A DNA stretch of 64,000 nt from Eledone cirrhosa (lineage: Eukaryota). Shown here one piece after another: positions 13,326-42,170 of the stretch; positions within the stretch are counted from its first letter, which is position 1, and each line of letters starts with the position of its first letter. The stretch is taken from NCBI GenBank assembly GCA_964016885.1, contig OZ024745.1, positions 18,476,001-18,540,000 of the forward strand, written 5' to 3'. The translations under genes were made by a program, and so were the position numbers. Under the pieces are notes generated by a model. That model worked only from the letters and a program-made list of their open reading frames with translations. It made no database searches and had not been told where the DNA came from.

Positions 13326-14128
13326 TAAACGGAAAAAATGAAACGAAATTTCATTTCCCACTCTTAGTTCGGCCGTTACTTAAATATAAGTATGTACACG
13401 TACATACATATATGTATACAGACGTACAGTAGCATGTATATATATATATACATACATTCACACATATATATGTACGTATGGATTCACCGAACATTTATTA
13501 TAATGCTCGGTGTGTTTGTAAACAAACATCCCGTATTAAGCCGTAGTTTCTAGCAACCATCGTTGCTCGTTTGTTCAACACTGACAAAGGAACGCTGTAC
13601 TAGTTTCAAACTTATTCGCTATCGTCAGCAACGTATACCCTCCTACCAGATTGTTGAACGTATATACTTACCTTATGCATATTAACGGTTGAGTAGCCCA
13701 ATTTGCATATTGAGTGGGTTAATCGGCCGGGTGCACCGAAAACGATAAACGGAAAAAATGAAACGAAATTTCATTTCCCACTCTCAGTACGGCTGTTACT
13801 TAAATATAAGTATGTACATGTACATACATATATGTATACAGACGTACAGTAGTATGTATATATATATACATACATGCACACATATATATATGTACGTATG
13901 GATTCACCGAACATTTATTATAATGCTCGGTGAGTTTGTAAACAAACATCGCGTATTAAGTCGTAGTGTCTAGCAACCATCGTTGCTCGTTTGTTCAACA
14001 CTGACAAAGGAACTCTGTACTAGTTTCAAGCTTATTAGCTATCGTCAGCAACGTATACCTTCCTGCCAGATTGTTGAACGTATATACTTACCTTATGCAT
14101 ATTAACGGGTGAGTAGCCCAATTTACAT
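13326..14128 (-). mobile_element. Tandem 420-bp HHR-containing repeat (family C, ~1.9 units), retrozyme-like
   Basis: Unit starts at 13326 and 13746. Minus-strand HHRs at 13593-13633 and 14013-14053: CGTTG CTGACGA TAGC..GYT T GAAAC TA GTA CAG(C/A)G. Confidence 0.85.
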
Positions 14129-14277
14129 ATATATATATATATATATATATATATATATATATATATATATATATATATATATATATATATATATATATAT
14201 ATATATATATATATATATATATATATATATACATATATATATACATGTACATATATATATATACATATATATATCAA

Positions 14278-16085
14278 TACTAGAAGATCAATACTAGAAG
14301 GTTAAACGAAAACACTAAGAACTTAAGTACAAAGAACCCCAAAAAAACAGTAGACAATACACTACAGAACATAAATAAACCACACCTAAGTTCGTCCGCA
14401 ATACTACTCCAGAGAAAACCCAACGTACACAACTGTAACTGCACCTATCCTGACAACTGCCCCCTCGGCAATAACTGCCTGGAAAAAAATATTATTTATA
14501 AGTGTACCATTAAATCCGGAGGCAACGAGTGGTATTACGTGGGATCAACGGCAACATCGTTTAAATCTCGATTGTATAGGCATTCTTACTCAATAAAACA
14601 CCAGAGCCAAAGAAATGTAACAACTTTAGCAGAAAAAGCTTGGACGCTCAGGGATAGCAATCAAAAGTTTACCCTAAAATGGGAAAAATTAGCTAAAACC
14701 CAAAGCTTTTCCAGGAGCCAAAATTTCTGCAAATTGTGTAATCTTGAGATTTATTACATAATCACACACAAGAAGAAACTGCTGAATAACAGAATTGAAC
14801 GAACATTATTCTGCCGTCACAGAACTAAAACCCTTTTTTCCCACTACAAGCAGAATATTACATAAAAGAGGGACATCCCCCAACTATATAAACCTTAATC
14901 TAGTTAGAAAAATATAAAAACAATCTCTTCTCAACATATATTAATAACCTTAAATTACCATACTAATAATGAAAAGATATGCTGATGAGAATAGGTACAA
15001 ATATGCGATAATGAATGTGTCTAAAAACGTCCATAAGTATGTATATATATGTGAAAATGTATATAAATAAGTAAATATATATATATGTTTGATGTGTATA
15101 GTTAGATGTAAGTGTATTCATGTATTAAAGTGCTTATATATATGTGTATGTGTGTGTGTATATGTATATGTGTGTATATATGTATATGTATATGTATGTA
15201 TATATATATGTATATATATGTATATATATATATATGTATATATATATATATATATATATATATATGTGTATGTATGTATGTGTATATGGATGTGTATGTA
15301 TGTGTATGTGTGTACACATGGACTAGAGTATGTATGTATATATGTGTGTGTCTATACGTGTGTATATATAAAGATAAGTTGAGTATGAAAATGTATACAC
15401 ATGAGCGCGTATGTATGTACATGAATACATGTGTGTATATATATGTGTATGCATGTGTATATATATGTAAGTATGAATATGTGAATTGTGAGTATATGTA
15501 TTTTGTAGAGGTGTGCAAATATATTTGTGTGTGAATGCGTGGGTGAAAGAATACGTACACTTGAAAGAAAAATTTAAGTCTGAATGTTAAGTGCAAACAC
15601 AAAACCAACCACGCATATCTTTACTATCTCTAATCCTTCTATAGATTTAGAAAAATAACCAATAATATATTCTATAAAAAATGTCAAAACAACAGATGGG
15701 AATCTAATTACTCACTGCCACCAAGAATTCTCACTGCTATCGAAAAACCACTCCTTCAACTATTCTTCTAACAACTTCACCCCTCCCTCCTAATATTCTC
15801 TATAAAAACTAAATAGGTCCTCAGTAATATTATTCTGATGAAATGACAGTAAATAATAACATTGAAATATTGAATGTCTGCATAACTAAAAGTTTGTAGA
15901 TAGCTGTTTTAGGTTATGTAACTGTTATAGAAACACGTGTCAATAAATTCCTTTCAACTAAACTGTATCCATTCAAATCTTTCTATTTTTCTCCGGATTA
16001 CTTTTGGAACTACAACTGGAACCGTCGAGCAAACTCTACGTGAGCTGATAATCTACTGTGTGTAATATTTATATTACAACACAAC
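14278..16085 (+). mobile_element. 5'-truncated PLE (Naiad-like GIY-YIG) with ~1 kb 3'UTR and HHR
   Basis: 14430-14865 encodes CNC..NCPL..NCLEKNIIYKC...YVGSTATSFKSR...CKLCNLE...LLNNRIE....CRH; HHR at 15830-15946. Confidence 0.85.
15830..15946 (+). ncRNA. Type I hammerhead ribozyme with extended branched stem II
   Basis: TTATT CTGATGA A ATGACAGT...CATAACTAAAA/TTTTAGGTTATG...ACTGTTAT A GAAAC ACGT GTC AATAA. Confidence 0.85.
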
Positions 16086-16629
16086 GGAAAATACTGTATA
16101 TACATATATATATGTATATATATGTATATATGTATATATGTATATTTATATACAGTGCGTGCGTGATCATGTGCGTTTCTGTCTTTTATATGTGTTTATG
16201 TTTATATGTTAGTACCTGCTCTTTATATGTACGTTCTAACACGAAATATTAATCAAAACTCTGGTGGAGTTTGGTAAATAATCAAACAGCATTATAGTTC
16301 ACCATTTTATTTCTTGTATAGAGTTATCTATCTTAAAGCACTTAATTGGTTTAGCCAAACGTGAAAGGAATATGTAACGCCAACAGCTACTTTTGCCTCT
16401 CCTAACGATTATTGCAAAGATCGAGAAAATTAGATTTTTTTCACTCAAATTGAAACTAATTAAGAGTGGTATTTCTTGTAGGCGCAGCTTCTTCGGCGGA
16501 ATGTGGTCTTCTTGGAGAGAGAAGTGGGTTGAAAATGAATTATTGCCAACGGTTATTCACATTAAATTACATATCGAAAGTGTATTGAAAATTTAAAAAA
16601 AACAGACAAATATAATTATTGAGCAGCCA

Positions 16630-39520: not shown

Positions 39521-40163
39521 CCGAAATACGATTCTCGCTAATTTATATTTGTATTAATCTCCAGAGTCTAGCTATTGACCAGTTAATTTTCTTGATTTTT
39601 TTAGTTAATTCTATTGACTGATTAATACCTTTTGTTAATTTTAAAACCATTCTGTTGAGAACTTAATTCGTTTTGTGATATTTTGCAATTTTGCAATAAT
39701 AACACACATACTGAATTCATCCGCCAAAACTAAAGGTTGCCCCCTTGTCGAGCCCCACGTGGGTTTTGATAACGGTCAGTCCTTCGCTTGGTACTTGAAC
39801 TAAAAGCCTGTTGAGAAAGTGACTTCCTTGTTCGATCTTCTTACCAAAACCTTACCATCATTTGTCTAAGCAGACAGTACTTGATTTAGGAGTTGCAGAA
39901 ACCTAAATGGTGGATTTTACCAACCTTCCAGAGGTCCGGGTATAATTTTCAATTATATTTTATTAGTTTGACCCGAATTACTTGGTCGTTTCTATGGCTG
40001 TGCGGATAATGGTTTAACCGTCTTCTCAGTGTGTTTGGCCTTTTAACTTATGTTGTAGCTCTAGTCCACTAGATTCTATGGAGCGCTTGACACACATCTC
40101 GAAAGTTGTATTTTGCTAATTTCCAATAACCGAAATACGATTCTCGGTAATTTATATTTGTAT
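39521..40163. mobile_element. ~609-bp insert in TA tract with ~34-bp terminal direct repeat
   Basis: CCGAAATACGATTCTCG(C/G)TAATTTATATTTGTAT at 39521 and 40130. Confidence 0.7.
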
Positions 40164-41696
40164 ATATATATATATATATATATATATATATATATGGGGG
40201 GGGGGGGGGTCAGTGAAATTGGGGATAACAACTAACAACTAACAATTATCCAGAAAGGAATTGTCTATTTGGTCGCTCTACCTGCAGCAACCAAATCTCA
40301 TTAATTTACAGCTTGCAATTTTGAAATGAAGAACTCCCTGGAAATGAGAGGCACCGAAATCAAGACGGGTTAGTGAAGGTCAGAACACAATTGGTGATGA
40401 GGCAGGTGGCTGTGGTAGCGTTATTGAAAATATTCCATTATTTCCATATTAAAACCCATGTAAGTCCTTAATAGCGTGACCTTTGGGTTTTCCTTTAATT
40501 CTAAATTGTGTTACTAACTAATAAAGTCTACTGATTTAAAGTTCACCTTTAATATGTCTGCAATTCAATTCTTTGAGTTCCCCATTCCAATGGAGCCAGA
40601 ATATGGCTGTGAAGTTGTTTCGCATCAGGAATTTTTTTCAAATTTATTCGAATGAAGAATATGTTTTTATTTGATTTGATTTCATGTTGCCCCCAACTAT
40701 ATATATATAGTATGTAGTGTTTATATGATCATATACACAATATCTCTTCTCGTTCTTGCATGCAGACGCTGAAATACAAAATCAATCTTATATGTAAACG
40801 TGCTATAAGATGAAGTATAAGGGTGGAAGATAATGAAGGAAGATACATGGTGAGCAAGTGAATGAGATAGAGAGAAACTATTGGAGATATATAAAGAGAG
40901 ACAAAGAATGAGCAGACAGATTTCCTCACACAACAAAATAAACGCACATTTGTGTGTGCATGTTAGTGTGTGTAGGTATGTATATATATATATATGGGGG
41001 GGGGGGGGGGTATATATACACACACATATAATACATATATATATGTATCTATATGTGTGTGTGTGTGTGTCTGTGTGTCTATATATATATATATATATAT
41101 CTACATATATATATATATATGTATGTATGTATATTTGTGTGTCTGTGTGTGTGTGTGAATATAAATATAAAATATAAGTGTGTGTGTGTTTCTGTGACTG
41201 TGCAAATGTGCATGTGTATAGATGTATTATGTATGTAGGCATGCATGTATAATGTACAAATTATATCAAAGATATAACGAGATTTAGAGAGGAGAGAGAC
41301 AAGAATATTGAACTAAATCTGAGTGGGTGGAATATTATAGGAATTGAATAGAATTGGTGTGGGAGAGGTTTGTGTATTGAACAATAAACATAAAACAAAA
41401 GTCGAAGATAGGTTCTTAATTAGTTCATCTTTTTACGATCGTTTCAGAGGATGGATTGATCATGGTAGGAAAATATATCGATATAGTGGTGGTTATGGCA
41501 CTATTTGTTTCTAGTGTCGAAATCTCTGATCGATCGCACAGTTTTTCCACGGCTTCTCCACTATCCAGTCATAAATGGACCCGATACCTAAGGTTGCGCA
41601 TATATAATAAGTGTAGGAAATTTTAAATGTAGTGTATATATATATATATATATATATATATATATATATATATATATATATATATATATAAGTTTA

Positions 41697-42170
41697 TACT
41701 GTACGTCTGTATACATATATGTATGACGTATACATAGTTACATTTAAGTATCAGCCATACTAAGAGTGAGAAATGAAATTTCATTTTTTCCATTTATCGT
41801 TTTGTGTACGCCCGGCCGACTAACTCACTCGATATGCAAATTAAGCTGCTCAGCTGTTAATATGCATAAGGAAAGTATATACTTTCAAACGTTCAATCAA
41901 CTGACAGGAAGGTATACAGTGCTGATGACAGCTAATAAACTAGAAACTAGTTCATCGTTCCTTTGTCAGTGTTGAACAAAAGGGCAACGATGGTTGCCGA
42001 ACACTGTACGGCTAATAATTCGGGCTGTTTATTTACAAACAAACCGAGCATTATAATAAATGTTCGGTAAACCCATACGTACATATATATATGTGTGTGC
42101 TTGTATGTATGTATATACATACTACTGTACGTCTGTATACATATATGTATGTACGTATACATACTTACAT
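41697..42170 (+). mobile_element. Circularly permuted, terminally redundant family C monomer with HHR at ~41918-41957
   Basis: Begins and ends with TACTGTACGTCTGTATACATATATGTATG; spans the head-to-tail junction seen at ~13746; GTG CTGATGA CAG..CTA GAAAC TA GTT CAT. Confidence 0.85.

Follow-up and report, generated by a model that had tools for sequence, protein, structure and literature searches.

Insertion ends of a hammerhead-motif tandem family in Eledone cirrhosa point to a retrozyme moved by Penelope-like elements

A 64,000-nt stretch of the Eledone cirrhosa genome (assembly GCA_964016885.1, contig OZ024745.1, positions 18,476,001 to 18,540,000; here called the window) contains copies of a 420-nt tandem repeat with one type I hammerhead ribozyme (HHR) motif per unit. 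We find that insertions of this family end at two fixed sites next to (TA)n and combine these sites as a Penelope-like element (PLE) of the same genome does. We therefore judge it very probable that the family is a retrozyme moved by a PLE. The best explanation for a non-coding hammerhead-motif tandem family with two fixed ends in (TA)n is, in our view, a retrozyme inserted by a PLE reverse transcriptase (RT) from a monomeric RNA circle; on this fuller account we come down only slightly in favor, the circle being its weak step. The family behaves as a non-autonomous rather than an autonomous PLE, as no open reading frame (ORF) with RT and GIY-YIG is joined to it. PLEs as movers of animal retrozymes, with a circle as template, were proposed in 2020 (Cervera 2020, PMC7229834) and received homology support in 2026 (Li 2026, bioRxiv 10.64898/2026.07.22.740005). 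What is new here is that the retrozyme-PLE link is drawn from insertion ends, a demonstration absent from the accessible portions of both papers. By all genomic criteria found there, the family is a retrozyme without long terminal repeats (non-LTR), as an earlier annotation made from the letters of the window (the original prediction) had proposed: its repeats are tandem, carry an HHR in each unit, are non-coding and low in GC, and are dispersed at high copy number.

Insertions end at two fixed sites and pair them

Positions within the unit are given as p, the plus-strand coordinate of the window minus 13325. The HHR sits on the minus strand, and this orientation implies that p decreases along the RNA from 5' to 3'; the cleavage site is predicted at p273/p272. 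Two samples were scored, namely, 86 best-hit loci that were left after overlapping or duplicated ones were dropped, and a position-ordered sample of 60 loci, chosen by following contig C1 through the match list of a 21-mer (present in all of them by design; one cluster was skipped and the last two were omitted). Among the 105 arms of the position-ordered sample, 49 RNA 3' ends lay at p1-16 (site A) and 39 at p50-64 (site B), with 4 others in longer internal TA tracts and 13 elsewhere. The two sites, 55 nt apart, together account for 88/105 arms, and the flank was TA rich at 74 of these 88 ends. Site B coincides with the loop of a predicted hairpin, and another hairpin is predicted just before site A. 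The 5' ends were scattered, occupying every 30-nt bin of the unit. The original prediction had expected end mapping to yield permutations dispersed around the monomer, which is not what we observe: 3' ends are fixed at either of two sites, as is usual for PLEs, and only the 5' ends scatter.

Many insertions consist of two head-to-head arms whose 3' ends face outward. With one local duplicate removed, one A end was paired with one B end in 62 of 65 classifiable two-armed insertions across both samples (23/24 in the position-ordered sample, with 36 two-armed insertions in all, 12 of them with an eroded end; 39/41 among best-hit loci, with 53 in all, 12 eroded). Because single arms split 18:11 and 21:21 between A and B, about half of the insertions would be expected to be A+B if the ends were independent. 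A sister retrozyme family found in the locus flanks (unit 466-469 nt, tail 69 nt) had A+B ends in 13/13 classifiable insertions, with 2 more unclassifiable, in a set chosen by eye for having both strands. The two arms summed to more than one unit in 58/62 AB insertions. In 21/62, neither arm was contained in the other, which excludes a fold-back origin of the inverted arm for these insertions and indicates that both arms were copied from RNA there.

The predicted cleavage site itself is not a hotspot of 5' ends. A window copy at 20323-20602 had raised the idea that 5' ends at this site mark cleavage in vivo, which we rejected: exact cleavage-site junctions into (TA)n number 13 genome-wide versus 13,314 copies reaching the site, and arm 5' ends lay within 5 nt of it in 0/105 and 3/154 cases.

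An intact PLE of the same genome follows the same rule

The window contains several PLEs, as follows.

52728-55640, plus strand: Neptune-like PLE with a broken frame; HHR at 55433-55461; 3' ends at 55588 and ~55638
14284-16097, plus strand: 5'-truncated Hydra-like PLE of a very young family with intact 785-aa copies; long low-complexity 3' region; apparent 3' ends at ~15981 and 16097
56601-57881 (plus strand), 31906-32346 (minus strand), and 61220-62587 (minus strand): broken PLE fragments with RT and GIY-YIG-like frames

The clade names (Neptune-like, Hydra-like) are provisional assignments from sequence motifs and from Craig 2021. The Neptune-like family has many intact 775-aa frames elsewhere in the genome (Pfam GIY-YIG, E = 0.00026). 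Its copies have two 3' ends ~50 nt apart that run into (TA)n, and 15/15 selected inverted pairs joined one short with one tailed outer end (13 clear, 2 probable). Since the fixed A/B ends and the one-tail rule are shared with this PLE, the retrozyme family carries a PLE signature, and the earlier suggestion of a PLE as the mover is supported. Related observations have been published for PLEs: an inverted copy with a tail at one side (Craig 2021, PMC8557442), and a pair of internal start sites that correspond to the tail, together with extension of both target strands and a predicted dimer (Frangieh 2024, PMC11167929).

These ends also bear on whether the family is a mobile satellite at the DNA level, spread by extrachromosomal circles or Helitron-like rolling circles and carrying a vestigial ribozyme. 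Arrays longer than 20 kb with higher-order structure would suit such a satellite, but the polarity of insertions tracks the HHR strand, 3' ends are fixed while 5' ends scatter, and the inverted arms with a one-sided tail repeat the pattern of an RT-coding PLE; we consider it the least likely of the explanations weighed here.

A further possibility is that the copies are merely 5'-truncated pseudo-LTR ends of an autonomous PLE and no independent element. The insertion grammar is that of PLEs, and at one locus (L062:3382-3383) the 5' end of a retrozyme array is joined directly, in inverted orientation, to a 5'-truncated PLE RT; this junction may be a hybrid insertion or a later deletion, and we treat it as a lead only. 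Against this reading, after the tail the unit goes back to its own start, with up to 50 consecutive HHRs. No sense-joined upstream PLE ORF was found in the 60 position-ordered loci (0/60) or in 76 free 5' flanks with the window's PLEs as queries; the outcome that would have refuted the original prediction, copies always attached to an RT-coding PLE, did not occur. At the DNA level, the unit did not resemble the 3' regions of either young PLE family compared (Neptune-like and 785-aa Hydra-like). The pseudo-LTR explanation is already largely refuted and, in our estimate, highly improbable. When the window's PLE proteins were compared with all loci and the 76 free 5' flanks, 2 inverted neighbors were found (in the window and at L062), which by a rough estimate is about what shared TA targeting would produce. 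The PLE at 14284-16097 was considered as a part of the neighboring retrozyme insertion and rejected: it is 96-98.6% identical to its young family, in contrast to the 5% by which the two neighboring retrozyme units differ, and has no homology to the unit.

Retrozyme copies in the window

Features of the retrozyme copies are listed below.

13326..14128, minus strand: single-arm insertion of 1.9 units (the dimer); RNA 3' end at 13326 (site A, tailed), 5' end truncated into (TA)n
13326..13380, minus strand: 55-nt tail between the fixed 3'-end sites (site A at 13326, site B at ~13381)
13573..13659, minus strand: extended stem I and internal loop around the HHR; fold z of -1.55 in unit 1, -2.07 in unit 2, and -3.26 in copy 3
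13598..13628, minus strand: unit 1 HHR core (type I); cleavage predicted after GUA, at 13598/13597; decay changes in loop 2 and stem II
14018..14048, minus strand: type I HHR core of unit 2; one mismatch in stem I
20323..20602, minus strand: additional copy running from site A to the predicted cleavage site, without the HHR core; 89% identical
41697..42170, plus strand: copy 3, of a diverged subfamily; 1.1 units, period 426; RNA 3' end at site B (~42170)
41922..41952, plus strand: copy 3 HHR core (type I), with a GUU triplet and C-A at the stem II base
12422..13325: target flank rich in (TA)n, dimer 3' end (Tandem Repeats Finder [TRF])
14129..14274: (TA)n flank at the dimer 5' end (TRF)
42171..42336: (TA)n flank at the copy 3 3' end

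The tandem arrangement described in the original prediction was recovered by TRF (13325-14130, period 420, 1.9 copies, 94% matches; unit-to-unit identity 94.6%), with the HHR motif on both units. Its statements that stem III is palindromic (ACUAGU) and that every copy abuts (TA)n were likewise confirmed, and the absence of an ORF was upheld: in units and natural arrays, stop-free stretches reach at most 75 aa on either strand. Rolling-circle translation of the 420-nt unit was also rejected, as stops occur in all frames. The inventory of copies was incomplete, with the dimer and copy 3 recognized and the copy at 20323-20602 overlooked, and the GUA cleavage triplet holds for the dimer only, copy 3 having GUU (both predicted). 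Copy 3, ~83% identical to the dimer, had been described as circularly permuted and terminally redundant. It does cross the same head-to-tail junction and repeats ~48 nt, a redundancy that follows from its period of 426, but it is a normal arm of 1.1 units that starts at site B. Because the first reading used the antisense strand, the supposed mid-unit start is the fixed-site RNA 3' end and the redundant end is a random 5' truncation. The copies of the window are old and ordinary.

The hammerhead fold is conserved in source copies

The motif CUGANGA...GAAACUAGUH occurs at minus 13628-13598, minus 14048-14018, and plus 41922-41952, on one strand only of the unit. Exact matches to the family-type HHR core number 26,133 in the 3.0-Gb genome (longer-unit variants included) versus 0 for reversed-pattern controls, so the matches are not due to chance; the 21-mer adjoining the HHR has 13,314 exact matches, and the core of the sister family has 9,560. 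Fourteen hand-picked HHR variants, including the sister family, aligned without gaps, with the catalytic core and ACUAGU invariant. On the HHR structure, 92.9% of cells were paired and both-sided changes occurred at 6/14 pairs, versus 29-51% paired in slid controls (the sequences are related, so this is not a probability). Over the entire unit, the two families share only ~62% identity. Because the core is invariant and stem changes are compensatory while the units drifted to this degree, the fold was conserved in source copies. Individual copies decay neutrally: core changes (1.8%) were as frequent as those in invariant-type flank columns (2.0-2.3%), and selection on individual copies was therefore rejected.

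Several points count against our explanation here. Rfam gave no hammerhead match, neither with the gathering score applied to the whole window nor with E values of up to 5 allowed for the dimer; the assignment is based on the motif and covariation, not on Rfam (sub-threshold miRNA-like matches on a TA-rich hairpin were treated as composition noise). The HHR is weak on paper: stem II has U-U or C-A at its base, stem III is one pair long, and each window copy has decay changes in the motif. Cleavage was seen in 1/9 Xenopus elements (Li 2026, bioRxiv 10.64898/2026.07.22.740005), and HHR cleavage was dispensable in vitro (Frangieh 2024, PMC11167929). Axolotl HHRs with the same weak features are poor self-cleavers as monomers and good ones as dimers (Cervera 2020, PMC7229834).

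The window also has four more HHR-like motifs, all on the minus strand (58694-58660, 51788-51750, 50685-50641, and 18375-18338), with self-complementary stem III regions and belonging to other repeat families. Many further HHR types occur in the locus flanks. A motif scan of two short tandems at 11465-12014 (period 230) and 60088-60405 (period 158) found no HHR.

A circular template is favored over a linear one

Three kinds of data lead us to favor a circular over a linear template: HHR read-through, alleles that the arms have in common, and young arrays that are both long and identical. The HHR site was passed 117 times versus 3 stops within p268-284. Rare alleles (present in at most 2 other loci) were common to both arms in 21/77 informative insertions versus 47/2,722 cross-locus pairs, and fully private alleles in 7/77 versus 15/2,722. 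At locus L012, the 5 units and the inverted arm show 0 differences except in an internal microsatellite and lie 3.9% from other loci; no second locus at 100% to this haplotype was present among 40 scored candidates. In the sister family, an insertion at C1:30.83 Mb holds 18 full units over 9.26 kb in both arms (6.9 and 12.9 units) with 0 variable sites. Four more loci carry its haplotype at 100% identity in arrays of different lengths, up to ~10 units; the family thus moved very recently, its new arrays are already long, and it is probably still active. These observations support a circular or multimeric RNA template, as originally predicted. The argument first given for it, that a shared junction implies a circle, fails, since the same junction arises in any PLE partial tandem, and the term "replicon," with its sense of RNA-to-RNA replication, finds no support in this analysis. 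On the viroid-like traits of a rod-like fold and ribozymes in both polarities, the analysis gave a branched predicted circle (67% paired, z = -5.3) and an HHR motif on one strand only.

The same non-autonomous family and PLE machinery could instead use an uncleaved linear transcript of an array, with the HHR dispensable and long arrays derived from homogeneous donors and unequal exchange. The evidence for our explanation can all be read in this direction too. HHR read-through is compatible with no cleavage, and it, the shared alleles, and the array data also fit an uncleaved transcript of a homogeneous array; homogeneous arrays of donor size are present in the genome, as the sister haplotype at 100% in 5 loci shows, so linear donors exist. 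Unprocessed RNA was the main in vitro substrate (Frangieh 2024, PMC11167929), and the autonomous 4.2-kb Neptune-like element also makes head-to-tail partial tandems. The ABAB array at L140, considered as a dimeric circle, was rejected on inspection as a two-unit duplication after insertion, and 3 long arrays (14, 30, and 48 units) have higher-order patterns; array length alone is therefore no proof. In the older subfamily, divergence within a locus (4.7-5.1%) is no lower than between loci (4.5%), and a 5.2% difference, with 0 shared variants, separates the two units of the dimer. Arm-shared alleles could be due to gene conversion between the inverted arms, and identical arrays to assembly polishing.

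Set against a linear template are the invariant HHR core and compensatory stems despite 62% identity, which point to selection on the ribozyme in source copies. In addition, a 13-unit arm requires a tandem RNA of identical units that is 6 kb long or longer, and no other array long enough with the haplotype of that arm was present among 39 scored candidates; the haplotype of L012, as noted, was likewise confined to one scored locus. Circles have been shown for coral, mussel, and axolotl retrozymes (PMC7229834). We regard the linear template as a genuine possibility, if not a likely one.

A model for insertion

If the template is a monomeric circle, tandem transcripts would self-cleave, probably as HHR dimers, and then ligate into 420-nt circles. 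A PLE RT-endonuclease, likely a dimer, would nick both strands of (TA)n, and the RT would start a cDNA at each of sites A and B. Both cDNAs would be extended round the template for varying distances, in many cases beyond a full turn, before their ends were joined to give head-to-head arms; failure of one arm would leave a single-arm copy like those of the window, and some arrays may enlarge later by unequal exchange. In its most far-reaching form, the proposal is that animal retrozyme circles are still active and that a PLE dimer primes both target strands at two fixed RNA hairpins of one circle, rolling to give kilobase head-to-head arrays that are born whole. To this version as a whole we give rather less than even weight. 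If true, the two-armed insertions, in their thousands, would directly record the integration step of PLEs and would represent a birth route for satellite DNA.

Comparison with known elements

As in metazoan non-LTR retrozymes (Cervera 2020; Li 2026), the repeats are non-coding tandems from dimers to multimers, with one type I HHR per unit, a GC content of 37% (0.367 for the unit), and tens of thousands of copies. The palindromic-tetraloop stem III resembles axolotl HHR_Amex1, and the U-U at the stem II base resembles HHR_Amex2 (PMC7229834). The units (420-484 nt) exceed the 170-400 nt range of Cervera 2020 but fall within the 51-972 range of Li 2026. Circles and cleavage, demonstrated for some retrozymes, are predicted for this family, and its insertion ends follow a strict PLE tail rule, whereas the accessible portions of the published retrozyme accounts include no such description of ends.

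With endonuclease-positive PLEs (Neptune, Hydra, and Poseidon; PMC8557442, PMC11167929), the family shares partial tandems, an inverted 5'-truncated copy, a tail at one end, (TA)n targets, two internal start sites, and an HHR near the end. It differs from them in having no ORF and multi-unit arrays in both arms, and its tail (55 nt; 69 in the sister family) is longer than the 30-40 nt reported for PLEs. Like the non-autonomous Chlamys PLEs, e.g., MRC1 (Craig 2021, PMC8557442), it consists of non-coding PLE passengers with multicopy head-to-tail insertions. In that study, the Chlamys elements have 3' ends like those of their autonomous partners, and an HHR is absent from most of them; here, the HHR is conserved, and no partner homology was found with the PLE types of the window as the only queries, a negative result that also counts against our explanation.

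The results touch a second question, namely, how PLEs form inverted arms with a one-sided tail. The family offers a 420-nt protein-free substrate with mapped start sites, very young sister insertions, and a near-strict one-tail rule that an intact PLE of this genome also obeys; the question of mover and template and that of the inverted arms thereby become testable in vitro and with existing long reads. A literature search turned up neither an octopus retrozyme nor a twin-priming model for PLEs, with most subscription journals outside its reach.

Related families and other repeats

Examples of the sister family are at L004:2677-3178, L030:2399-2920, and G000 C1:30831610-30840869. With units of 466-516 nt, the variant families at L243, L244, L247, and L248 share the HHR of the window unit and, where compared, are ~82% identical to that unit. 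A ~21.5-kb array at G000 C28:43945657-43971382 has 50 HHRs, 6.9% unit divergence, and higher-order structure and is broken by a 3.5-kb stretch within the TA tract of one unit. Among contigs of 4 runs of unknown library type, related sequence was present in X1 and X4, with short pieces in X6.

Two other repeats were noticed. A short TA-abutting repeat with a long internal hairpin lies at window positions 20613-20760 and at L137 (minus strand) 3461-3283 and recurs in many flanks. Window positions 42350-42630 hold a SINE-like repeat that may resemble an octopus SINE.

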